Assembly: GCA_036405175.1 (NCBI GenBank)
Contig: DASWYC010000002.1
Coordinates: 603,373-667,372 of the forward strand
Source: Minisyncoccota bacterium
GTDB taxonomy: Bacteria; Patescibacteriota; Minisyncoccia; Phycocordibacterales; UBA1006
Length of the DNA stretch: 64,000 bases
Direction: 5' to 3'
The position numbers and the translations under genes are program-made. Below, piece by piece: positions 1,514 through 57,285 of the stretch (positions are counted from its first letter, which is position 1; each line of letters starts with the position of its first letter). Below the pieces are notes generated by a model. The model saw nothing but the letters and a program-made list of their open reading frames with translations. It was not told the DNA's origin and searched no databases.

Positions 1514-1617
1514 GATTTATAAAAGACAGCGGGCTCTATCGGCCCTACGCTCGCGGTCTGATATATTCGCACGTACGTGCTCATTATCAGCCACTGCGCG
1601 ACTGTCTTTTATAAATC
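1514..1617. repeat. Long nested inverted repeat. Outer stem is 16 bp (gatttataaaagacag / ctgtcttttataaatc). Inner palindromes ctgata/tatcag and gcacgtacgtgc.
   Basis: Read directly in the sequence. Begins 4 nt after the virB4 stop. The track ORF 1284..1655 spans it and is probably spurious. Confidence 0.6.
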
Positions 1618-4827: not shown

Positions 4828-7800
4828 ATGAAAAAATTTATCTTAGGTTTGGTGTTCGTGGGAATTACCTTTTTGGGAGCCCAACATGCCAACGCACAAG
4901 TTTTTAATACCTATCCTGGAGATTGTCCAACAATCGGAGTAACTACGCTTGCTAATGCAAGTAATGGTTGTCGAGACTCTTCTATTGATGGTGTAAATCC
5001 TGGAGATATCCTTATTGTAGGGGTATATTTTCACAATACTTCACCAATCGATACAAGCGCAATCGTAAGAATGTCAGACCTCCAAGGAGGATCTGGTAAG
5101 TCTGTTCCTATATACGGAACCATTCAGCCAGCAGATGGTGCAGGGGCTGGTGGGCAAGGAATGGTGCATTTTAGTCAGACATCACGTCTTGAATATATGT
5201 ACACTAAAGTGTACTGGAATGGTCGTGATTTTGGTGGCGGTGGTGTTGAAACCGACCGTACCGGACGCGTATTTACCAGTGGAGAACCTCTCTATCTTGT
5301 TCCTGGAATGTGTTCAAATTGTGCCGATAAATTCATCGATCAGGGTGTTGTAAAAGCATATTATCGTGTTATTGGTCTTGATGCTGCCCCAATTGAGGAG
5401 GCTCCACAGTGGAATACTAACGGATATCCGCGTGTTGTATGTGCTGGAAACAACAATGGAACCGTTACGGTAAAAGCTTTTGGAAATGGAAAGCAAGTTC
5501 AATTTAAGAACTACTTTAATGATAATTGGGTAAATGAATCAGGAAATAACGAATATACTTGGTATAACGTTCCAAACGGAACATATAACACCGCAGTTCG
5601 CTTTGCGGGTTCAGGTAATTCACGTGGAGGTTCATTCCAAGTAAATTGTAATGTTAATAATCCAAACCCTGATCCAGATCCAGGAAATCCACCAAGCGGA
5701 AATTTTGAAAACTTTAAGGTAAAAAATAATACAACCTCTGATGGAATTGTGATTCGTTACACCAGCCCAAGCGGAGATAAGACTTTTGGTCTTAGTGGAA
5801 GTTCTGCTGGCGATGGAAGTCATATTAGTCCATGTATTACTGGTATCAAATCATCAGTAGTAAAAATCAGTGGAGTATCTTGGGCTTCATTTAGTATTAT
5901 TTCGTGTGATGGCGGTCCTTCAAATCCTAATCCAGATCCAGAGCCTCAACAAGGAACTCCTGAGTGGAATACCAATGGGTATCCTCGTGTAATTTGTAAT
6001 AACAATGGAACTGCAAACGTTACTATCAAAGCATATGGAAACGGAAAGCAGGTTCAGTTTAAGCATTACAGCAACGGTTCTTGGGTAACCGAGACAGGAA
6101 ATAATGAATATACATTCTATAATGTTCCTTCTAAATCGGGAGTATATACCACAGGAGTTCGTTTTGTTGGTTCAACTAATGAACGTCAAGGATTCTTTGC
6201 AGTAAGCTGTAACGATCAAGGGCCTACTAATCCCGAGCAAGCTCCTGACTGGAATGTAAATGGATATCCACGTGTGGTATGTAATACTAACGGAACTGCA
6301 ACAGTAACCGTTAAGGCATATGGAAATGGAAAACAAGTACAATTCCGTAACTACAACAACAATAACTGGGTAACTGAAACCGGAAACAACGAATATACCT
6401 GGTATAACGTTCCTTCTCGATCACAGGCATACGCAACTGCTGTTCGCTTTGTTGGTCAAACTGCTGAGCGCGCGGGATACTTTGCCGTAAATTGTAATGA
6501 TGAAGGTCCAACCAATCCAACTAACCAGTGTGCTATTTCTGATGCAAACTGGGATACTGCCGGTTATCCTCGCGTAGAATTCCTTTCTGCTACTTCAAAT
6601 GATGTAAGTGTAATTGTAAAAGCAAAGAATACTGGCGGAAAAACCGTTGAATTCTTTAACGCAGCAACACAGCGCTATGAAGTTGCTAACATGAGTGATA
6701 ATCGTATTATCTGGTCAAATATTATTGCTACCTGGCCAATCGCTGGGCAAAATGGAAACAAGAAATTGTACAGCACCTGGTTGCGATTCCAAGGATGTAC
6801 TGAGCGTGTACAAGGATGGTTTGAGGTAACTCCTCGCGAAGTTAGTGATAACACCACTAAACCAAGCGTAGAGACCCGTAGCCCAGAAGATGTATCACGT
6901 AACTCAGCAACTATTGTTGGAAACTTGCTTTCAAAGGGAGGTCTTTCAACTCAAACATACTTGTATTGGGGACGTCGTCAGGGAAGCACCTGTACCGCAT
7001 CGGATCTTATTTATAAGACTCCAGAAACCACCAACGCTAATACTGGAACCTTTAGTCGCTACATCTCAGGACTCTCAGCTGATACCTGGTATTGTTACCA
7101 AGCCGCAGCATCAAATAATAAGGGAGAAGTGAAGGGTGACATTCGTTCATTCAAAACAACTACTGATTACACACCAAGTGATGTAATTCGTATTGAAACT
7201 ACGTCAGCAACTAACATCTCTTCAGAATACGCAACACTTCGTGGAGAAGTAGTTGATACTGGAGATGCTAATACTGTTCGTACATGGTTTGAATTTGGAA
7301 ACAGCTCTAGTACCGTATCAAACGGAAATGGAACTCGCTACTCTGTATCAGGGGACTTCTATCGTGGAAATTCAATTTCACGTAGCGTAAGTGGACTTCA
7401 GCGAGGAACTCGCTACTACTTCCGTGCGTGTGGAGAAAACACTGTAGGTCAACAAGACTGTGGAGATGTTCTCAGCTTTGTTACTGAAGGAAATAACTCA
7501 ACTATTCAAGTTGATACCGAACAAGAATCAGATGTAAGCTATACTGCTGCTCGTATGCATGGACGTGTACGCGAAACTGGACGAAGCACTCGTCTTCGTA
7601 CTTGGTTTGAGTACAGCACCTCAGAAAACAATGTATACAACGGAAATGGATCACGTATCTATCTTGATAACAACTATGGATACTCACAAGGTCAGTCATT
7701 CTCACAAATGGTAACCGGTTTGCAAAGTAATACTCGTTACTTCTACCGCGCTTGTGGAGATAATACCGAAGGGGAGCGTGACTGTGGTGATGTTGAATCA

Positions 7801-8934
7801 TTTGTAACGCTTTCAAATAACTACAATCCAGTTCAACCAGAACGCCTTGGAACATTGGTTACTACACTTGCTGCAAGTTCAGTACGTCAGTACAATGCTC
7901 GCTTGAATGGATCATTCAATGCTCGTGATTGTTCTTCTGAATTGTGGTTTGAATACGGACGCACCAGCTCTCTTGGAGAAGTGGTAAATATTGGAACTCG
8001 TTCAGCATATGATCGTGGAGTGGTTTCTGCTGATATCTCAGGATTGAAGCCAAACACCACCTACTACTTCCGCATTGTTGGAAGTGGCTGTGGATCAATT
8101 GTTCGTGGAGCTACCAAGACCTTTAAGACTCCAAAAACTACCACAACCGTAGTAAATCCTCCTGTCAAACAAAAACCAGTAGTAAAAGTTATTCAAGTTA
8201 AGGAAGACGTAAATGTTGCTGCAGAAAGCATCTGTTCTCCTGATCTTGATCTTAAGATTGATAACAATCGTGATACTATTGGAAACCGTGAAGAATTTGA
8301 TTACGTAATTACCTATCAAAATCTTACGCAAACATACGTGCTCCGCGATATTGAAATGCAGGTAGAAATTCCTCCACAGCTTGAATTTGTAAGCTCATCA
8401 CGAGGAACCTACAACAAGGCATCTCACTCTCTCTTTATTTCACGCATGGATCTTAATCCATCACAGCGTGAGACATTCACCGTAACGGTGCGTGCTAAGA
8501 AGGGATTGGTAGAAGGTGATCTTATTGTTGCATCAGCAACTGCATCATTCATCAGTCCAACTACCGGAATCAACGATAGTTCAACCGACTTTGATTCTGA
8601 TGAATACTTGAATTCTCGTAATTCTAATGGATCATCAGACAATAGTAGTGATCGTTCACTATTTGGAAGTTCAGATAATGGTGGAAATGGATTCCTTCCA
8701 TCAAGTCTTGTTGGATGGTTGTCACTTATCTTCTTGGTATTCCTCTTCATTGCAGCACTTCGCTGGCTCTGGTTTGGAAAGAAGGGAAATGAATACAACT
8801 ATGCCTACGGACCATACGGAGTTCCTCCAACCAACAATGTGTATGGCGCACCGGTACAACCTGTAGCACCCGTTGCTCCGGTTCAACCAGTTCAGCCAAT
8901 CTACGTTCCATTTAATCCAAATCAACCAAGATAA
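4828..8934 (+). CDS. Giant cell-surface protein (1368 aa): signal peptide, 3-4 tandem ~95-aa modules, ~5 Fn3-like modules, DUF11-like repeat domain, C-terminal TM anchor and Pro-rich tail
   Basis: Signal peptide MKKFILGLVFVGITFLGAQHANA. WNTNGYPRV...GNGKQVQF...GNNEYT.YNVP...VRF.G...CN is repeated three times with PNPDPDP linkers. Repeated W(F/Y)E(F/Y)G...YY(F)R..G.N..G..DCGDV.SF.T modules follow. TM helix GWLSLIFLVFLFIAAL, then an APVQPVAPVAPVQPVQP tail. Confidence 0.8.
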   Translation: MKKFILGLVFVGITFLGAQHANAQVFNTYPGDCPTIGVTTLANASNGCRDSSIDGVNPGDILIVGVYFHNTSPIDTSAIVRMSDLQGGSGKSVPIYGTIQPADGAGAGGQGMVHFSQTSRLEYMYTKVYWNGRDFGGGGVETDRTGRVFTSGEPLYLVPGMCSNCADKFIDQGVVKAYYRVIGLDAAPIEEAPQWNTNGYPRVVCAGNNNGTVTVKAFGNGKQVQFKNYFNDNWVNESGNNEYTWYNVPNGTYNTAVRFAGSGNSRGGSFQVNCNVNNPNPDPDPGNPPSGNFENFKVKNNTTSDGIVIRYTSPSGDKTFGLSGSSAGDGSHISPCITGIKSSVVKISGVSWASFSIISCDGGPSNPNPDPEPQQGTPEWNTNGYPRVICNNNGTANVTIKAYGNGKQVQFKHYSNGSWVTETGNNEYTFYNVPSKSGVYTTGVRFVGSTNERQGFFAVSCNDQGPTNPEQAPDWNVNGYPRVVCNTNGTATVTVKAYGNGKQVQFRNYNNNNWVTETGNNEYTWYNVPSRSQAYATAVRFVGQTAERAGYFAVNCNDEGPTNPTNQCAISDANWDTAGYPRVEFLSATSNDVSVIVKAKNTGGKTVEFFNAATQRYEVANMSDNRIIWSNIIATWPIAGQNGNKKLYSTWLRFQGCTERVQGWFEVTPREVSDNTTKPSVETRSPEDVSRNSATIVGNLLSKGGLSTQTYLYWGRRQGSTCTASDLIYKTPETTNANTGTFSRYISGLSADTWYCYQAAASNNKGEVKGDIRSFKTTTDYTPSDVIRIETTSATNISSEYATLRGEVVDTGDANTVRTWFEFGNSSSTVSNGNGTRYSVSGDFYRGNSISRSVSGLQRGTRYYFRACGENTVGQQDCGDVLSFVTEGNNSTIQVDTEQESDVSYTAARMHGRVRETGRSTRLRTWFEYSTSENNVYNGNGSRIYLDNNYGYSQGQSFSQMVTGLQSNTRYFYRACGDNTEGERDCGDVESFVTLSNNYNPVQPERLGTLVTTLAASSVRQYNARLNGSFNARDCSSELWFEYGRTSSLGEVVNIGTRSAYDRGVVSADISGLKPNTTYYFRIVGSGCGSIVRGATKTFKTPKTTTTVVNPPVKQKPVVKVIQVKEDVNVAAESICSPDLDLKIDNNRDTIGNREEFDYVITYQNLTQTYVLRDIEMQVEIPPQLEFVSSSRGTYNKASHSLFISRMDLNPSQRETFTVTVRAKKGLVEGDLIVASATASFISPTTGINDSSTDFDSDEYLNSRNSNGSSDNSSDRSLFGSSDNGGNGFLPSSLVGWLSLIFLVFLFIAALRWLWFGKKGNEYNYAYGPYGVPPTNNVYGAPVQPVAPVAPVQPVQPIYVPFNPNQPR
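5401..6528 (+). repeat. Intragenic tandem DNA repeats (~285 nt, approximate copies at 5401..5690, 5955..6240, 6241..6528)
   Basis: The near-identical protein modules imply a nucleotide repeat. Copies 2 and 3 are directly adjacent. Confidence 0.6.
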
Positions 8935-9153: not shown

Positions 9154-9597
9154 ATGTTAACGATTACTACTAACAATTCTGGTGAAGCAGCGAAGTATTT
9201 TTTTGACACTATTCAGCATCAAGTTGAAACTGATGGGAAAGTAATTATTGCTTTAAAGGGTGATTTGGGGGCAGGAAAAACCACATTGGTGCAGGAGTTT
9301 TGCAAAATGTGTGGCGTACAAGATGTAGTAACGAGTCCAACCTTTCCCATCATGAATGTGTATGAAGGAGAAATTAATGAACAGAAAACAGTGATTCATC
9401 ACTTTGACTGGTATCGCTTGGATTCTATGGCTGATCTAGGAGTGATTAATTTGCCGATGATTTTATCTCAATTAGGAATATTTTTTATCGAATGGCCAGA
9501 AAAACTACCGGAAGTATTAGGCGATTACGAACACTATGTACTTTCAATAGATATTGAAGGAGAGAGTAGAATTTATAATCTTGAGAAACACAATTAA
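9154..9597 (+). CDS. tsaE: tRNA threonylcarbamoyladenosine biosynthesis protein TsaE (YjeE)
   Basis: P-loop GDLGAGKTTLVQ, then SPTFPIMNVYEG and HHFDWYRL, all typical of TsaE. Confidence 0.8.
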   Translation: MLTITTNNSGEAAKYFFDTIQHQVETDGKVIIALKGDLGAGKTTLVQEFCKMCGVQDVVTSPTFPIMNVYEGEINEQKTVIHHFDWYRLDSMADLGVINLPMILSQLGIFFIEWPEKLPEVLGDYEHYVLSIDIEGESRIYNLEKHN

Positions 9598-9600
9598 AAC

Positions 9601-9721
9601 AAATTTAAATTCCTCCAAAGCAGCGCCTCAAGGGCTAGCGCTCGACGATTATTATAGTCGGGTCCAAAGCCCACCCTCCTTAATAATCGTCTGCGCGACT
9701 GCTTTTTTGGAATTTAAATTT
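9601..9721 (+). ncRNA. Candidate structured RNA element, copy 1 of a two-copy family (second copy 56229..56343)
   Basis: Perfect 13-bp outer stem aaatttaaattcc/ggaatttaaattt. Inner 11-bp stem gacgattatta/taataatcgtc. The blocks agcgcctcaa, gattattatag and ctccttaata.tcgtctg are shared with copy 2. Confidence 0.4.
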
Positions 9722-9758
9722 GTTTTAGAGATTCCCTATTTTCATATATACTAAACCC

Positions 9759-12110
9759 ATGAAACCAGCCCCTATTGTACTTATTGATGCCTACGCGTTG
9801 CTTCATCGCGGATATCACGCATTTCCTCATCTTTCTACGCCAGAAGGCTTTCCAACGGGAGCACTCTATGGATTTACGGCCATGATCGTGCGGATCATTG
9901 AAAAATACGATCCAAAAGACGTTTTGGTGTGTTTTGATATGCCGGAGGAGACGTTTCGCCATGTTGCGTATGAGCAGTATAAGGCGGGCCGTCTAGAGAC
10001 CGATGAGTCTCTTAAGGTTCAGCTTCAAGAAGCACATAATCTTGCGCGTGCGTTCGGTTTTTTAGTCTACGAGAGCCCTTCTTTTGAAGCGGACGATTTA
10101 CTTGGAACACTCGCTGAGCAGCTCAAAAAATCGTATGACGGACAGATTATTATTGCCACCGGTGATAAAGATGCTCTTCAATTAATTGATGGCGAAAAGG
10201 TGGTGGTGTACACCTACAAGAAAACCACCAAAGATACTATTTTATATACCGAAGACGAAGTGCTCAAGGACTTTGGCTATACACCGACACAAGTTCCCGA
10301 TTATAAAGGTCTTGCAGGAGATTCATCAGATAATATTCCCGGCATCAAGGGAATTGGTGAAAAAACTGCCTGCAAGTTGTTGCAAAAATTTGGGAGCATT
10401 GAGCACATGTATGAAGTGCTTGAATCAGGCGATGAGGAAGCATTTACCAGTATTGGGGTAAAGGGTGTTTCTCTTCAAAAGGTAAAAGAAGGTAAAGAAG
10501 ATGCGCTCTTTTCAAAAGTAATTGCAACCATTCGCAGAGATGCACCGGTGAGTTACTCGGAAACGGTAACGTGGAAAGAGCGTGCAAAACCTCAGGAAGT
10601 ATTTAGCTATCTTGGAAAATACTACTTTAAATCAATGCTTAATCAATTTAGAACCTATTTTGGCGAACAGTCTGCTGCAGCAGAAAGTTACGATATTGAT
10701 CCGCTGCTCTTTAAAAAAGCTCAGGTTGCTTATTGGCTTTTGGATTCTCAGCAAACCAATCCAAATATTTTAGACATGCAGTTTTTGACCCACAAGCAAA
10801 CTGTCGAAGAAATTCTTGAAGTGCTTGAACAAAAATTAAAAGATCAAAATTTGTTTGAAGTCTACATAGAAATTGAAGTGCCACTTATTCCAATTTTGGC
10901 AGCGATGAAAGAGCGAGGAATCATGATTGATAGAAAACATTTTGAAGATCTTAAAGTTGAATTTGAAACCAAGATTGCAGAATTAGAGCAGAAAATTCAA
11001 AGTTATGCCGAAGGAAAGATTATCAACATTCGTTCACCAAAACAGGTAGGGGAATTGTTGTTTGATATTCTCAAATTACCTGCTAAATATGTTAAAAAAA
11101 CAGCCACCGGTGAGCGTTCAACGAATGAAAAGGAGCTTTTAAAGATGAAAGACGTGCATCCGGTAATTGATTTATTGCTCGAGTATCGCTTTGCGGAAAA
11201 AATGCGCTCAACGTATATTGAAACGTTGCCGCAAACTGCTGATGAAAACGCCGTGATTCATAGTGATCTTATCCAAACAGGAGCATCAACAGGGCGTTTT
11301 GCATCGGCAAACCCAAATCTTCAAAATATCCCAATTCGTAATGACTCGGCAAAACTTATCCGTGGTGGATTTATTGCACGTCCTGGCTATACGTTTTTAG
11401 CAGCAGACTATTCTCAGATTGAGTTGCGCATTGCGGCTATTTTGTCGGGTGATTCTAACTTAATTGAAATCTTTAAACGCGGAGAAGATGTTCATGCGGG
11501 AGTTGCATCGCGTGTGTTTAATAAGCCGCTTAATGAAGTGACCCTTGATGAGCGTCGCAAAGCAAAGGTGATTAACTTTGGAATTGTATATGGAATGGGT
11601 GTAAGTGCGCTGATGGAAAATCTTAAAACTACTCGTGCGGAGGCTCAGCTTTTCTATGATCAATATAAAAGTACGTTTCCGGTTTTGATGAGTTTTATGG
11701 AGGGAACCAAAAGAAGTGCCGAGGAAACAGGGTATACACTTACATTCTTTGGACGCCGCTGCAACTTTAAAGATCTTAAATCAAAAATGCCGTATGTAAA
11801 AGCAATGGCGGAGCGCATGGCGGCTAACGCACCAATTCAAGGAACGGCAACCGCTGATCTTATTAAATTGGCGCTTAGATTTGTATGGGAAGAAATCACT
11901 CAAAAGTATGGGGAAGATATTTGTATGCCACTTCTGCAGATTCATGATGAATTGTTGTTTGAGGTACAGCTTGGCAAAGAAGATGAGATTGGAAAGAAGA
12001 TCAAGGAAGTGATGGAAAGTGTTTTTGAAAAGTCGTATAAAAAGTACAAGTCTGTGGTGCCAATTTTGGTTGATGTACATACGGGAACCTCGTGGGATAA
12101 GCTTAAATAA
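9759..12110 (+). CDS. polA: DNA polymerase I (short form, 783 aa)
   Basis: 5'-3' exonuclease N-terminus (LIDAYALLHRGYHAF...). Pol A motifs RRKAKVINFGIVYGMG and QIHDELLFE. The length implies a reduced or absent 3'-5' exonuclease domain. Confidence 0.85.
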   Translation: MKPAPIVLIDAYALLHRGYHAFPHLSTPEGFPTGALYGFTAMIVRIIEKYDPKDVLVCFDMPEETFRHVAYEQYKAGRLETDESLKVQLQEAHNLARAFGFLVYESPSFEADDLLGTLAEQLKKSYDGQIIIATGDKDALQLIDGEKVVVYTYKKTTKDTILYTEDEVLKDFGYTPTQVPDYKGLAGDSSDNIPGIKGIGEKTACKLLQKFGSIEHMYEVLESGDEEAFTSIGVKGVSLQKVKEGKEDALFSKVIATIRRDAPVSYSETVTWKERAKPQEVFSYLGKYYFKSMLNQFRTYFGEQSAAAESYDIDPLLFKKAQVAYWLLDSQQTNPNILDMQFLTHKQTVEEILEVLEQKLKDQNLFEVYIEIEVPLIPILAAMKERGIMIDRKHFEDLKVEFETKIAELEQKIQSYAEGKIINIRSPKQVGELLFDILKLPAKYVKKTATGERSTNEKELLKMKDVHPVIDLLLEYRFAEKMRSTYIETLPQTADENAVIHSDLIQTGASTGRFASANPNLQNIPIRNDSAKLIRGGFIARPGYTFLAADYSQIELRIAAILSGDSNLIEIFKRGEDVHAGVASRVFNKPLNEVTLDERRKAKVINFGIVYGMGVSALMENLKTTRAEAQLFYDQYKSTFPVLMSFMEGTKRSAEETGYTLTFFGRRCNFKDLKSKMPYVKAMAERMAANAPIQGTATADLIKLALRFVWEEITQKYGEDICMPLLQIHDELLFEVQLGKEDEIGKKIKEVMESVFEKSYKKYKSVVPILVDVHTGTSWDKLK

Positions 12111-22005: not shown

Positions 22006-22030
22006 CGTGTGCTCTCGCTAGGAATCGAAC

Positions 22031-22102
22031 CTAGATCACGGGTACCGCAAACCCGCGTTCTATCCATTGAACTACGAAAGCAGTAGTGAAATAATACCAT
22101 AT
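22031..22102 (-). tRNA. tRNA-Arg (anticodon reads GCG by hand parse)
   Basis: Reverse complement: acceptor gctttcg/cgagagc, D-arm gttc-aatggata-gaac, anticodon stem cgggt/acccg with loop ttgcggt, T-arm ctagg-ttcgatt-cctag. Confidence 0.65.
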
Positions 22103-38899: not shown

Positions 38900-38968
38900 A
38901 TTTTTATTATAGCAAGACGTTACGAGCCAAAATTAAAAAACTATGAATACAATTTTATTTTCACTCGG

Positions 38969-39040
38969 TGCTTCCACTAGGAATCGAACCTAGATCAAGG
39001 GCTTAGAAGTCCCCTGTTCTATCCATTGAACTATAGAAGC
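38969..39040 (-). tRNA. tRNA-Arg (anticodon TCT)
   Basis: Reverse complement: acceptor gcttcta/tggaagc, D-arm gttc-aatggata-gaac, anticodon loop cttctaa, T-arm ctagg-ttcgatt-cctag. One non-canonical pair closes the anticodon stem. Confidence 0.7.
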
Positions 39041-39125
39041 GATAGTGCAATAATACAACAGATTTGGGATTTTTCAATGAAATAATACAAAAAAATCTCA
39101 TGCGTGAACATGAGATTTTTTTGCT

Positions 39126-42376: not shown

Positions 42377-42439
42377 GTTAAAAGTTTAGCATGGTATGCG
42401 AATTTCTAAGAAGAAATATTCTCGTGTATACTATCTGCA

Positions 42440-43651
42440 ATGGAAGGTGGAATAGATCATAATAAAAACCTTGAAGCAAAGATAGAAAAAGGGCTTAGTG
42501 ATTACGAGAAACAAATAAGTACTTACGGCAAGACAAAGGAGCAAGCCTATGAGTGGGTTACAAGTGGGTGGTTTCAAGATTGGAAAGATGCTTTTGACAA
42601 AGCGCTTAGTGAGAAAGAAAGTGTTGCACAAGAAGAAATCATAGAAGAGCAGGAACCAGAAAAAGCTCGAGAGTCAATCGTAGAAATACCTGCTGAGTTA
42701 ACCGATGAGCAAGTATTGGAAGGCATTAGAATAAATGAACAAAGAGAACAAGAAAGACTTAGGCGTAATAATAAGACAGAAGATGGAATTTCTCCCAACA
42801 TCGAAGTTCCTAAAAAAGAGGTGGTGGGAGCTTATGAAAAAGCTGCACGGGAGCGTGATGAAAAAGCAAAAGCAGAGGAGGCGCAACGAGAGCAGAAGCG
42901 TGCTGAAGATAAGCGAATTCAGGATTTAAGAAATCAATTAACTGGCTCTCAGCAAGAAGAAGAGATTCTTGATGAAGATCAGAAAACAATAAGAAATATT
43001 AAAGGTATTATGGCTCAGCTTGTAAAAGCGGCAGCAAATATTGGAGAGAATGCTAATGAGAAAACTCAAGAGTTAGCTGCAAGGATTCTTGAAAATCCAT
43101 TAGGTAAAGAAAAGATCTTAGAGGGGTATGGTTCAACATTTCGTGGATCTGTAGAAAAATTGCTTGCTGCGGTTGAACAACAAGAGAATGCTCTTAAGGT
43201 TATTCAAGGGTTTGAGCAAATTGATCAACTCTTTAAGATGCTTAATGAAGACTATTATTTTCTTACCCATATCACGCCACCTCAAGATGCGCAGGATATC
43301 TATAACAGTAACTTCTCATATTCTCTTGGAGGAGGATTATCAGGTACTATGACAGCCCTCAGTAAAGATGGGGTGATGCAGCAAATTGGCAAAATCATAG
43401 CAGGCGAGTCGCCTCATCGTGGATACGAAGGGATGTTTATAGTTGCAATTCCTAAGAATATTCTTCCTTCTGATCGGAGATTTGATGCAGAGGCATTCTC
43501 GGACTATCTTACCGATCACGCATTTAATGAAAATGGTACTGTGAACGAGAAGTATATGGACGGCTCAAATATTAAAATCCCATCAGAATTTAATCTTGGA
43601 TATCTTAATAAGGATATATTTACCTACAATCCAACATTTATTAAAAAATAG
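42440..43651 (+). CDS. Hypothetical coiled-coil protein (403 aa)
   Basis: Central ~200 aa are highly E/K/R/Q-rich and predicted helical. The globular C-terminal domain is unknown. Confidence 0.5.
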   Translation: MEGGIDHNKNLEAKIEKGLSDYEKQISTYGKTKEQAYEWVTSGWFQDWKDAFDKALSEKESVAQEEIIEEQEPEKARESIVEIPAELTDEQVLEGIRINEQREQERLRRNNKTEDGISPNIEVPKKEVVGAYEKAARERDEKAKAEEAQREQKRAEDKRIQDLRNQLTGSQQEEEILDEDQKTIRNIKGIMAQLVKAAANIGENANEKTQELAARILENPLGKEKILEGYGSTFRGSVEKLLAAVEQQENALKVIQGFEQIDQLFKMLNEDYYFLTHITPPQDAQDIYNSNFSYSLGGGLSGTMTALSKDGVMQQIGKIIAGESPHRGYEGMFIVAIPKNILPSDRRFDAEAFSDYLTDHAFNENGTVNEKYMDGSNIKIPSEFNLGYLNKDIFTYNPTFIKK

Positions 43652-53456: not shown

Positions 53457-56204
53457 TTATTCTCGCTTAAATCGTCCAAAGATTTCTGCTTCAACTTCAG
53501 CCCGTATGTGGCCATGTTTAAGTTGAGATAATTCTTTAAGCTTATCAATATTATCCCGATTACCTTGAGGAAGCTCTAGCGTGTGGATATTAAATGCTCG
53601 TTGAGGAACACCGCCAGACAGCATAGAAACATATGCATTTCGGTTCTTCTGTTTAATAATATCTTCCTTGGTAAACACTGGGTCAAGACGCTTTTGTAGC
53701 TGTTCTGCATCGTCAGGGTCAACACGGAAAATTGCCATGGTTCCAACGTTTCCAAATACTGCATTTCTAATACCATCATCAAGCTGGCGCAAATACTGGT
53801 GAGCAACATTCAATGACAATCTATATTTACGAGCTTCAGACAAGATAGATGCAATTGATGGAGTTGTAACATTCTGGAACTCATCTAAGTACAGATAAAA
53901 ATCTTTATGTTGTTGTCCATATGCTGCACCAGCACGCCCGAGTGCTGCCATTTGGATTTTGTTCACGAGCACCAATCCAATCAAACTTGCATTGAGTTCT
54001 CCAAGGCGACCCTTAGAAAGATTTACAATTAAAATCTTTCCTTGATCCATGATCTCGCGAATATTTATTGAAGATTTTTGCTGCAAAATAATGGGGCGCA
54101 AAAATTCATTAGTAATGAATGGGTCAAAGAAGCGGGTAACATAGGGAACAAAGTTTTCGAGTGCTTGATCACCTTTAGCCTTTTTGGCATTCTCAAAGAA
54201 CTGATTAATGATAGGATTTTTACATTTTGCTAATTTTGCTTCCCGGAATGCCTCATCACCCAAAACACGGGTAATTTCAAGCAAAGTGCTTCCAGACTCA
54301 GGATCTTCCATTACGAGCATTGCTGAGTTTTTAAAGTATTGTTCAAATGCAGGACCAGCTGTTGCTTTCATATCAAAGAGCTTGTTAAAAATCACCATAA
54401 GCTCATCAATTACTAACGTCTTTTGTTCGGGGAATAGAGGATCATATTCCAACATGTTAAGCCCCATGGGTCGTTCGGTATTTGCAGGATCAAAGTAAAT
54501 CACATCATCAATACGATGCGGTGGAATCAAAGAAAGAATCGTTTGTGCGTCAGTTCCGTGTGGATCAATATAGCAAACACCTTCGCCGTTATTAATATCC
54601 TGGAGAATCATGGTCAAAAGCGTTCCGGTCTTTCCGGTTCCTGTTTGTCCAATTGCATAAAAGTGGCGCATGCGATCATCCTTTGGATAATGAATTTCAG
54701 TATCTTTACCAGCATTATTATTAATGCCTAAAAGAATTCCTTCTTGAACAAGCTCAAGCGGAGCTGGGGCAGTTTTTGCTTCATTGAATTTAACTTCTGG
54801 GATAAGGTTCTGGCTGAGTTGAGGGAAGTGGAAAATAGTTGCCAACTCTTCTGAGCTTAGAATAAATTTACTGTTGCCTCCAAATTCGCGGAAGATAAAT
54901 TTGGTGATAAAGGTTTCCATGCTTTTATCTGGAACACGGCTCACGACATATGAGTTTCCCGAAGGGTGACGTAAGTGCATGATTGATCCACCAACTTCAG
55001 TAATCAGCGCATCAGACTTTTGCTTGCTTTGGGTACACACTACAATGTTCATTGAAACGCGGAACAAGTGGTGACCAAGTTTTTTCTGAAGGAGACCTTG
55101 GCGCTCAGAGTCATTATGATTAAGTGAATCTTTTTTGTCCTCATCAGATCTACCACTTAAAAAGAGGGAGTTGAGCGCTTTTGAAACAGCATGTTGAGAC
55201 GCTTCTTCTATTGCTTCTTTCATCTTTTTTCCTTTTTGAAGCAACTTATTCACTTCTTCAAGTTCTTTTCGATCTTCTTTCTTTTCAGTTGCTACCGTAA
55301 TTTGAATCGTGGCGCCTTCCGTTTCTTTTTCAAGACGAGACAACATATTAACAATTACCTGAAGCGGATCAGTTTCATAATCGTTATATGAGGGAAGGGT
55401 ATATGATGAATGTTCTTTAAGGTGAACTTCTGCAGCTGCAAGATATCCAGACTCCAAAAACATATTGGTATCATCAAGAAGTTCTTTTACTTGAATGGTT
55501 GGGAAAAATCCAATGATCGATTTCTCAATTGCTGTTTTTGATTCTTTTGGTACGGCAACAAAAAACACAATTTGTCCACGTGAAGGAATGAATGAGATTT
55601 CAAAATTAATACTTTCGTTTTCGCCAAGCATTGAAGATATAGAGGTATACACTTGTTCCATGGTTGCAGCTAATGCTTTGTGAGATGTTCGTTCGCCTTG
55701 ATGATCAGGAGCAATAGTAATTTCAAGAAGTGTCTTGTGAGTTGGTTCAAAAAAACGGGACTCAATCTTAAGTTCTTGCCCATTCATTTTTTGATATGCG
55801 CGAACATACTGGATAAGAAAGCGATGAAAATCATCTTCAATATGAGGATTATGAAGACCTTCAACAAGTGCCAGTGTTTTTGCAATGCCATGCGCTTCTA
55901 AAAATGAAAAGAGCACCTGCATGTTTTGGTCATGAGATTCCGGAGTAAGAAGCTGTTGAACTTCTTGAAAGAGTGGTTGATGCTGTGCAACTTGTTCCTG
56001 GGGAAGCTGAGGAATAGTTTGTTGAACAATCTCTTTTGATTTTACTACTTGTTCCTTAATGGGGAGGTTTTTAAATTGAGGCTGTTTAAATGCTTCATGA
56101 TTACGATAGTATTCAAGCTCCTGTTGAATGTGTGCAGGAATTTTTTCCGGGGTGGGTGCTGATGGTGCGGGTGTAAAATTAGGATTAAGAGGAATCTCAT
56201 TCAT
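53457..56204 (-). CDS. VirD4/TraG/TraD-like type IV coupling protein ATPase with a ~450-aa N-terminal extension
   Basis: Walker A YAIGQTGTGKTGTLLTM, Walker B FYLYLDEFQNV, and conserved C-terminal T4CP region. The N-terminal half is Q/E/K-rich and lacks the usual two-TM anchor. Confidence 0.7.
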   Translation of the reverse strand: MNEIPLNPNFTPAPSAPTPEKIPAHIQQELEYYRNHEAFKQPQFKNLPIKEQVVKSKEIVQQTIPQLPQEQVAQHQPLFQEVQQLLTPESHDQNMQVLFSFLEAHGIAKTLALVEGLHNPHIEDDFHRFLIQYVRAYQKMNGQELKIESRFFEPTHKTLLEITIAPDHQGERTSHKALAATMEQVYTSISSMLGENESINFEISFIPSRGQIVFFVAVPKESKTAIEKSIIGFFPTIQVKELLDDTNMFLESGYLAAAEVHLKEHSSYTLPSYNDYETDPLQVIVNMLSRLEKETEGATIQITVATEKKEDRKELEEVNKLLQKGKKMKEAIEEASQHAVSKALNSLFLSGRSDEDKKDSLNHNDSERQGLLQKKLGHHLFRVSMNIVVCTQSKQKSDALITEVGGSIMHLRHPSGNSYVVSRVPDKSMETFITKFIFREFGGNSKFILSSEELATIFHFPQLSQNLIPEVKFNEAKTAPAPLELVQEGILLGINNNAGKDTEIHYPKDDRMRHFYAIGQTGTGKTGTLLTMILQDINNGEGVCYIDPHGTDAQTILSLIPPHRIDDVIYFDPANTERPMGLNMLEYDPLFPEQKTLVIDELMVIFNKLFDMKATAGPAFEQYFKNSAMLVMEDPESGSTLLEITRVLGDEAFREAKLAKCKNPIINQFFENAKKAKGDQALENFVPYVTRFFDPFITNEFLRPIILQQKSSINIREIMDQGKILIVNLSKGRLGELNASLIGLVLVNKIQMAALGRAGAAYGQQHKDFYLYLDEFQNVTTPSIASILSEARKYRLSLNVAHQYLRQLDDGIRNAVFGNVGTMAIFRVDPDDAEQLQKRLDPVFTKEDIIKQKNRNAYVSMLSGGVPQRAFNIHTLELPQGNRDNIDKLKELSQLKHGHIRAEVEAEIFGRFKRE

Positions 56205-56228
56205 GCGTAAATTATATCATTGTGATTT

Positions 56229-56343
56229 AAAAAACTTTCTTGAAGCCAGCGCCTCAATGTTAACGCTTGATGATTATTATAGTTGCACCCAGAGCTCGTG
56301 CTCCTTAATAGTCGTCTGTGCAACTAGTTTCAAAAAGTTTTTT
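56229..56343 (+). ncRNA. Candidate structured RNA element, copy 2
   Basis: Outer stem aaaaaactttcttgaa/ttcaaaaagtttttt. Inner stem gatgattatta/taatagtcgtc carries two G·U wobbles at positions that are Watson-Crick in copy 1. A third helix agttgcac/gtgcaact is also present. Confidence 0.4.
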
Positions 56344-56357
56344 GTGAGATTTAGTTT

Positions 56358-56386
56358 TTGACGATAAGGCATAAATGTGCATAATG
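56358..56386 (+). promoter_or_regulatory. Promoter TTGACG-N17-ATAATG (TG-extended)
   Basis: ttgacg 56358..56363, tg 56378..56379, cataat/ataatg 56380..56386. Lies 22 nt upstream of the ATG at 56408. Confidence 0.5.
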
Positions 56387-56407
56387 AGAACATTAAACCT
56401 TATTAAG

Positions 56408-56554
56408 ATGGTACACCGAAAACTAAAGAGAGAAGCATCTCAGTTCAGAGCCTCAACTCGCAAAGAGAAAAAAGGAAGATATAGTAAAGCCGAAAAAGAG
56501 GATTCTAAAGACAACAGCTCAGCAGCAATTCAAACCGCTACAGCTGAAAATTAA
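56408..56554 (+). CDS. Unannotated small basic protein (48 aa)
   Basis: Translation MVHRKLKREASQFRASTRKEKKGRYSKAEKEDSKDNSSAAIQTATAEN. Promoter upstream and hairpin terminator 56576..56608 downstream. No SD. Confidence 0.4.
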   Translation: MVHRKLKREASQFRASTRKEKKGRYSKAEKEDSKDNSSAAIQTATAEN

Positions 56555-56575
56555 ATCTTTACAGATTCTTCAGAA

Positions 56576-56608
56576 GAAGCCCATGGATTTTGTCTATGGG
56601 CTTTTGTT
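56576..56608 (+). terminator. Rho-independent terminator
   Basis: agcccat-ggattttgtct-atgggct followed by tttgttg. Confidence 0.65.
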
Positions 56609-56620
56609 GTATAAAAACCT

Positions 56621-56648
56621 AGATAAAAATAAAACCCCGTTAAGGGCT
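56621..56648 (-). terminator. Rho-independent terminator for rpmB (minus strand)
   Basis: Reverse strand reads aaagccc-ttaac-ggggttt followed by tatttttat, starting directly after the rpmB stop. Confidence 0.7.
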
Positions 56649-56900
56649 TTATTTGAAGCTAATAACTCCAGAATCTTTAAGGGCAGCAAGTGCTCCTTTT
56701 TTAGTGATAGTGCGAAGTCCGCGAGCTGATACCAAGAGGGTAACTTCTTCGTTAAGCTCTGGAATCAAGATAGTCTTCTTGTGGAGGTTAGCTTTTTTTC
56801 GGTTGATACCGGTAGGGTTGAATTTAGTAGCACGAGTTCTGTTTGAGTACCCGCCTGCCATAATGCTTGATTTTCCGGTAATTGCGCATTGCTTTGCCAT
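56649..56900 (-). CDS. rpmB: 50S ribosomal protein L28
   Basis: MAKQCAITGKSSIMAGGYSNRTRATKFNPTGINRKKANLHKK... is a canonical L28 N-terminus. Confidence 0.85.
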   Translation of the reverse strand: MAKQCAITGKSSIMAGGYSNRTRATKFNPTGINRKKANLHKKTILIPELNEEVTLLVSARGLRTITKKGALAALKDSGVISFK

Positions 56901-57285
56901 AGTTCTCCTAAAATACCATATATTATATAAATGTGCAACTAAAATAGGTGATAGTTAAAAAAGATCGAAAATCAAGTTTTATAAAGAAAAAGCCTCTTTT
57001 GGAGGCTTTAACATTCAAAGCGGTTTCTTTTGGATTTTCTTGGGGCATCGCGACCTCAATTTTAAGAGAAACTTGGTGCGCAGATCACTTCTTTTAAGAG
57101 AGCCTTTGGGGCCTCTTACTAAATAGCGAACACCTTTGCCAACAGCGGACAAAAGGATGATTGACAAAAAGAGGATTTTCAAAGTTTCCATTACCTAAGT
57201 TGTGTAAAAATTCCTGACTGCTCTCATTCTCGGACATTTCACCAAAAATGTCAATAAAATTCATGAATTTTTCTGTAAGATTTGC

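Follow-up and report, generated by a model that had tools for sequence, protein, structure and literature searches.

A putative small transcription unit with an orphan 48-codon reading frame in a strain-variable spacer of a Candidatus Paceibacterota genome

In the window, a stretch of 64,000 nucleotides from a metagenome-assembled genome of Candidatus Paceibacterota (CPR), the spacer between rpmB and a gene for a TraG-like protein contains, on the + strand, a promoter-like site, a short open reading frame (the sORF), and an intrinsic terminator in this order. Our preferred reading, which we hold tentatively and at a little less than an even chance, is that these features form a real, self-contained, and lineage-specific small transcription unit that expresses an orphan basic peptide of 48 aa. 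The transcription unit as such appears well supported by signals that are ordered and consistent in strand, and we infer transcription, translation, and a function of the peptide from the sequence. Translation is suggested by frame-specific codon usage, by the ORF filling most of the unit, and by the unstructured RNA.

According to the preferred reading, the region 56358-56612 would be a + strand unit that comprises a sigma-70-like promoter, an unstructured A-rich RNA of ~185 nt, and an intrinsic terminator. Translation would begin from a short AU-rich leader that lacks a Shine-Dalgarno (SD) sequence, as in operon-internal genes of this genome, and the product would be a lineage-restricted peptide of 48 aa that starts with a basic helix at its N-terminus and is disordered towards its end. 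The product is neither a ribosomal protein nor that of a conserved gene, nor is it a dedicated partner of the structured repeat adjacent to it. In short, this is an orphan small ORF or transcript of the ordinary kind, specific to the strain and located in a variable spacer, and will not surprise a specialist.

The coordinates of the features are collected in Table 1. The proteins encoded on both sides of the spacer have consecutive accessions, and therefore no NCBI protein is annotated between them; PGAP made no call there, in agreement with a first-pass annotation of this DNA, which had described the sORF as unannotated. The third gene near the unit encodes a SIMPL protein (HEY1041786). In eight Logan contigs, a gene caller picked the frame of the sORF as a 56-aa ORF from the ATG at 56384. 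There is no other gene on the + strand within 2.7 kb upstream of the unit, so that a terminator on this strand is meaningful only for a transcript that begins inside the spacer.

Table 1. Features of the sORF locus and related features, in window positions
Feature	Position	Strand	Remarks
Promoter-like site, sigma-70 type	56358..56385	+	TTGACG-16 nt-CATAAT; 10/12 consensus matches
Predicted transcript body	56392..56574	+	A-rich; structure no greater than in shuffles
48-codon ORF (MVHRKLKRE...TATAEN)	56408..56554	+	ATG 56408, TAA 56552-56554; net charge about +6
Intrinsic terminator, hairpin and U-rich tail	56575..56612	+	+ strand-specific through G-U pairs
Spacer around the sORF	56205-56648		444 nt, from the start of the TraG-like gene to the end of rpmB
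Strain-variable block	56229..56624	.	396 bp, element copy 2 and sORF unit; 25 nt in the closest relative
HEY1041784, TraM-recognition/TraG-like protein (TraG/VirD4-like, DUF8128)	53457-56204	minus	915 aa
HEY1041785, bL28 (rpmB, L28)	56649-56900	minus	
Leaderless promoter and start of the TraG/VirD4-like gene	56202..56219	minus	TGATATAAT, 6 nt, ATG; common to the relative; bounds the variable block on its left
rpmB (L28) terminator hairpin with U run	56627..56654	minus	Common to the relative; right edge of the variable block
Element copy 1	9595-9727	+	Resembles copy 2
Element copy 2	56229..56352	+	Covariance-model core 56243-56334; ends 5 nt before the sORF -35
Element copy 3	1514-1617 (outer stem), core 1526-1612	+	Diverged; covariance model, 43 bits, E about 1e-9
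Leaderless examples	56202-56219, 9745-9761, 42424-42442	-, +, +	

The promoter-like site consists of a -35 hexamer (TTGACG, 56358-56363) and a -10 hexamer (CATAAT, 56380-56385), and the 16 nt between the scanner hexamers fall within the 16-18 nt of sigma-70 promoters, a class assignment made here by consensus match alone. The expected transcription start is at ~56392. The first-pass annotation had described an extended -10 promoter, TTGACG-N17-tgcATAAT, which is the same site read in a different way; the site stands, but the extended -10 does not, since the TG is off its canonical position.

At the other end of the unit, the hairpin terminator previously placed at 56576..56608 is recovered at 56575-56605, where a 14-bp stem with a 3-nt loop is followed by the U-rich tail UUUUGUUGU. 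By definition, an intrinsic (Rho-independent) terminator combines a stable, GC-containing hairpin with a U run behind it on the strand that is transcribed, as is the case here. On the + strand, the hairpin folds at -20.6 kcal/mol (z = -4.66), and none of 200 shuffles folds as well, whereas the same DNA on the - strand folds at -12.0 kcal/mol (z -2.56) and has no U run behind it; because of its G-U pairs, the hairpin is a device of the + strand.

The combination of these signals was compared with 3000 dinucleotide shuffles of the 444-nt spacer, in which the promoter had to reach 10/12 matches, the ATG ORF a minimum of 45 codons, and the hairpin a folding energy no weaker than -15 kcal/mol. Such a promoter occurs in 393 of the shuffles and a promoter followed by an ORF in seven, while the three components in order occur in none of them. 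The arrangement is not due to chance, and the promoter-ORF-terminator unit proposed earlier is borne out as a self-contained unit on the + strand.

The body of the predicted RNA is a different matter in terms of structure: region 56392-56540 folds at -17.8 kcal/mol, which corresponds to z = +0.48 relative to shuffles, and an unstructured transcript of this kind looks more like an mRNA than like a structured regulatory RNA. When the Rfam 15 covariance models are run on the window, gathering scores are reached by tRNAs only. At E values of up to 10, both element loci and the unit give noise alone; the top match within 56150-56700 has an E value of 0.18 and 20 bits, compared with a gathering score of 43, and covers the hairpin only.

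The ATG at 56408 and its 48-codon ORF are present as described in the first-pass annotation, and the product is exactly as quoted there. Further in-frame ATGs are located at 56375 (59 aa) and 56384 (56 aa). Of the ~220 nt of the unit, the ORF takes up 147 nt, with 20 nt between its stop codon and the hairpin. With 65 A and 21 T in 144 nt, however, the body of the ORF is A-rich and T-poor, and 9.8% of its dinucleotide shuffles keep the frame open, so that an open frame by itself is weak evidence in this stretch; indeed, a second + frame is open there over 71 codons. The open frame and the basic, Lys/Arg/Glu-rich product derive largely from the A-rich composition, and A-rich spacers of this genome yield open frames and "basic proteins" almost free.

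Codon usage gives modest support for coding. For this analysis, 45 long ORFs of the window served as the training set for a codon log-odds score. The sORF scores 0.22 per codon, compared with 0.35 ± 0.16 for 48-codon windows of real genes and -0.21 ± 0.20 for spurious ORFs inside genes; this places it at the 20th percentile of the real-gene windows and above 99% of the spurious ORFs. The remaining two + frames score -0.15 and -0.95. Among the shuffles that stay open, 1.5% reach the score of the sORF (p about 0.015), a deviation of ~2 sd that is measured over just 47 codons.

When the 48-aa peptide is given to AF2 as a single sequence, one helix (residues 2-24) is predicted and the rest is disordered, with a mean pLDDT of 73, a model that says little about the peptide. 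The peptide is hydrophilic throughout, being rich in K, R, E, S, and A. A type I toxin or small membrane peptide was also considered as a candidate, and is ruled out by the lack of a hydrophobic transmembrane segment. The sole long tryptic peptide of the product is the C-terminal DNSSAAIQTATAEN.

How such an ORF would be started depends on what is usual in this genome. Of the 62 ORFs with 100 aa or more, 16 have an exact TATA[AC]T that ends 6-10 nt upstream of the start codon, where chance would give 0.29, while just three of the 62 have this hexamer at another distance within 60 nt of the start. Leaderless architecture is dominant in this genome, and the TraG-like gene (TGATATAAT, 6 nt, ATG) and polA are examples of it. 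SD motifs are rare; a permissive motif search finds them in 16 of the 62 genes, several of which are doubtful. The first-pass annotation had noted that the sORF has no SD and considered the coding call to be weakened by this. The absence is real, but it carries little weight against coding, because most genes in the window have no SD. The unit is useful here as a calibration case: a missing SD is uninformative in a genome in which leaderless starts are the rule.

The sORF also departs from the leaderless promoter type of this genome, as its -10 ends 22 nt before the ATG at 56408. For this ATG, no alternative -10 or SD is present, and a leaderless start at the ATG of 56375 or 56384 is ruled out, since neither has a suitable -10 6-10 nt upstream. 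Thus, the sORF has neither of the typical start architectures, i.e., TATA[AC]T 6-10 nt before the start or an SD. It would need initiation on a ~16-nt AU-rich leader without SD, which is possible and atypical; operon-internal genes in the window also start behind AU-rich, SD-less sequence. Nothing directly relevant was found in the literature on leaderless translation in Patescibacteria.

To collect homologues, the peptide was compared with 5.8 billion clusters by a word-indexed search and with 1.84 billion representatives by full phmmer, and in both cases the self-match alone was returned; among JGI metagenomes and viral contigs, no relative was found by tblastn-type scans. Pfam contains no family that matches the peptide at E values of up to 1, the best match in NCBIfam has an E value of 0.35 (9.8 bits, compared with a cut-off of 300), and the best match in PHROG has an E value of 0.18. 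Hence, the tblastn and HMM searches that had been suggested as a check find nothing besides the peptide itself, and the resemblance to small ribosome-associated or nucleic-acid-binding proteins that had been noted from composition does not correspond to any family of Pfam, NCBIfam, or PHROG. A ribosomal protein or a member of a known small-protein family is ruled out by the lack of a significant profile HMM match in Pfam and NCBIfam, and a conserved protein-coding gene by the lack of homologues and by the nearest relative, from which the locus is missing.

The eight contigs that carry the unit are 100% identical over the region, with a single gene context and no sequence variants, and the variable block as a whole is identical across all Logan contigs of this population. 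In the closest relative, 25 AT-rich nt replace the 396-nt block, and rpmB and the TraG-like gene are only 73 nt apart. The surrounding region is otherwise closely similar: the TraG-like protein has 95% identity, bL28 differs by one substitution, the flanks are 91-95% identical at the nucleotide level where aligned, and both the rpmB terminator and the leaderless TraG promoter, which lie on either side of the block, are kept. The first-pass annotation had named a reading frame not conserved in related genomes as evidence against its coding call, and this is essentially what is found, as the only close relative is without the whole unit. The unit therefore appears in sequence comparison to be accessory and lineage-restricted, having been either gained here or lost in the sister lineage. 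Neither a target-site duplication nor a clean insertion scar is seen at the ends of the block, where the junctions are AT-rich, of low complexity, and of little diagnostic value.

Beyond the closest relative, the identity of the TraG-like protein drops from 95% to 47%. In the three relatives looked up at 47-48% identity (P0007, P0013, and P0026), the TraG-like gene follows map/adk rather than rpmB, and consequently these relatives say nothing on the rpmB-TraG spacer. The position of this gene after rpmB here and after adk/map in these three relatives indicates a local rearrangement. The TraG/VirD4-like (DUF8128) gene is widespread in Paceibacterota at ~45% identity; loci L011, L012, and L014 were compared with the window, and in L012 SecY is also located upstream of it. 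In the window, PrgI-like and TraC-like genes are found at 1702-2731.

The repeat adjacent to the unit occurs in three copies. Copies 1 and 2 are alike over ~150 nt, with an alignment score of 105 compared with 26 ± 3.7 for shuffles, and this similarity stops at 56357, just ahead of the sORF promoter. A covariance model was built from the cores of these two copies, and then rebuilt and run with filters off; no fourth copy was found in the window by the rebuilt model. The elements are 105-135 nt long and form a long closing stem around a three-way junction (z-scores -7.3, -9.3, and -2.7); according to the folding energies, both strands fold about equally well. In the core, compensatory changes are seen in 10 of 23 pairs, and 98.5% of the cells are paired, compared with 32-47% when the partners are slid by 1-3 columns; note that the pairing alignment was fitted to the model, so that these counts lean towards structure. 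The conserved motifs of the junction are CAGCG, ACGCU, and CUGCGCGACUG. When GTDB species genomes, JGI metagenomes, and viral contigs were searched for the core pattern GATTATTATAGT-N10-30-CTCCTTAATA, only chance matches in unrelated organisms were obtained, the source MAG being evidently absent from the genome collection.

Copies 1 and 3 each start directly at the stop codon of an upstream + strand gene (tsaE and a 489-aa gene, respectively), or no more than 3 nt from it, and end ahead of the next leaderless promoter (that of polA and of a PrgI-like gene, respectively). Copy 2 likewise precedes a promoter, that of the sORF, but is not itself preceded by a + strand gene. The close relative keeps copy 3 with one base change, which repairs a pair, while copies 1 and 2 are missing from the orthologous spacers. 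In the tsaE-polA interval, the close relative has a 202-aa gene of unknown function where there is element copy 1 alone here (window 9598-9758 compared with L016 2234-3000 and L027 8470-9236), and in L018, which is more distantly related, the interval between tsaE and polA contains a long hairpin that is different again. Two independent Logan contigs terminate at one shared position within copy 3.

In several respects, the family is similar to REP/BIME, Correia, and Rickettsia palindromic elements: it is ~105-135 nt long with a long terminal stem, is located at gene ends, is present in several copies per genome, and varies in presence between close genomes. Unlike these elements, however, it has terminal stems that differ by copy with the pairing kept, its internal three-way junction is the conserved part, and no target duplication is seen. 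This pattern suggests selection on structure rather than ends recognised by a transposase. The family is possibly an undescribed structured RNA or DNA element at gene ends ahead of leaderless promoters.

The preferred reading has to be weighed against other explanations of the unit. One of them, which we regard as unlikely though far from negligible, is that the unit is a small non-coding RNA of ~220 nt and that the ORF is a by-product of the A-rich, T-poor composition. Promoter and terminator are indeed the statistically strong parts of the unit, the frame is one that 9.8% of the shuffles would leave open beside a second frame of 71 open codons, the start has no SD and is off the leaderless norm, and the peptide has no homologue. 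Moreover, the genes of trans-acting bacterial sRNAs (promoter, 50-300 nt, intrinsic terminator) are likewise free-standing, and the unit with its ~220 nt and good terminator fits this pattern. Unlike such genes and most regulatory RNAs, however, the unit has a body whose structure is not beyond chance (z +0.48) and no Rfam family even at E values of up to 10; the RNA is no more conserved in the nearest relative than the peptide, a gene-like ORF fills most of it, and codon usage is specific to the frame and exceeds what would be predicted from composition. The unit might also be a functionless relic, left behind when sequence was inserted or rearranged or when a gene decayed down to its end, in which a promoter-like site and a hairpin happen to persist; for this we would allow a similarly small share of the probability. 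In favour of a relic, the relative, with flanks that are 91-95% identical at the nucleotide level where aligned, differs by an indel that comprises all of the 396-bp block. Element copies 1 and 2 are both at loci differing from the relative, so that these spacers are prone to rearrangement, and the ORF is without homologues and encodes a low-complexity product. Against this, no residual gene similarity has come to light: six-frame comparisons of the block, in which a gene remnant was sought in the remainder of the window and in every retrieved locus, including the related ones, gave nothing below an E value of 0.04, and the DNA of the block has no match in phage and plasmid collections. In addition, none of the 3000 shuffles reproduces the ordered promoter-ORF-terminator arrangement, the hairpin has stayed intact and is specific to its strand, and 270 nt of junk are rarely kept in a genome as compact as this one.

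The first-pass annotation had further suggested that the sORF and the neighbouring element are functionally paired, e.g., as an RNA-binding protein and its target. A basic RNA- or DNA-binding peptide that acts on the adjacent element, in a functional pair or a mobile cassette, would account for the distance of 5 nt between element and promoter, for the absence of both together from the relative, and for the predicted basic helix in the N-terminal half of the peptide. Nevertheless, we consider this explanation most improbable. Such an ORF is missing next to two of the three copies, those at 1514-1617 and 9595-9727, which are followed by the PrgI-like gene and polA, respectively. Copy 3 is also retained in the relative, whose rpmB-TraG locus lacks the peptide, and a pairing of protein and target is therefore unsupported. 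Furthermore, the similarity between copies 1 and 2 stops before the promoter, and the peptide is confined to one genomic context with no variant on record. An elaborated form of the idea, which has only a very slight chance of being correct, is that the 396-bp block is a small composite accessory cassette. In it, the three-way-junction repeat, which belongs to a lineage-specific family whose stems covary, would be accompanied by, or recruit, a basic helix peptide that is self-expressed and binds the repeat. As part of such a cassette, and with the same slight chance, the peptide could be, for example, a terminator or anti-terminator factor or a recombination helper. The adjacency is best read as the sORF unit filling the "next gene" slot behind these elements.

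Returning to the preferred reading, a lineage-specific unit that would express an orphan peptide, the closest known parallel is that of the orphan (taxonomically restricted) small ORFs found in variable intergenic regions of bacterial genomes. These are likewise shorter than 50 codons, without homologues, and present or absent between close strains, and they have a low-complexity charged product and their own promoter and terminator. There is no difference in kind between them and the predicted unit, except that its start is unusual for a genome dominated by leaderless genes. The peptide has its size and positive charge in common with bS21, bL34, bL36, and RMF-type factors, and the sORF adjoins rpmB; unlike these proteins, it has no profile match, and it is not a core ribosomal component because it is absent from the closest relative. 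The unit is also convergent with rpmB and would not be co-transcribed with it.

For further work, the repeat family and a conserved small ORF at 57015-57191 are better targets than the sORF unit. This unannotated ORF of 58 aa lies on the - strand, across rpmB from the sORF unit, and its product has a hydrophobic N-terminus and a basic tail. There is a promoter-like site at 57254-57226 and a terminator-like site at 57009-56989. In the relative, its counterpart is an in-frame ORF of 55 aa (L004 3386-3553), the two products being 46% identical in their first 28 aa (pairwise E 7e-6), and blastn detects no similarity to the relative across most of the spacer that contains the 58-aa ORF. It is a better supported small-protein candidate than the 48-aa ORF.

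Other repeated sequences were noted elsewhere in the window. A 1368-aa ORF (4828-8934), which encodes a large surface-type protein, contains internal repeats of ~180-280 nt with 71-75% identity at 5395-6518, and two tRNA-Arg genes (22009-22097 and 38968-39056, with anticodons gcg and tct) have 79% identity, the similarity extending ~16 nt into the flank.
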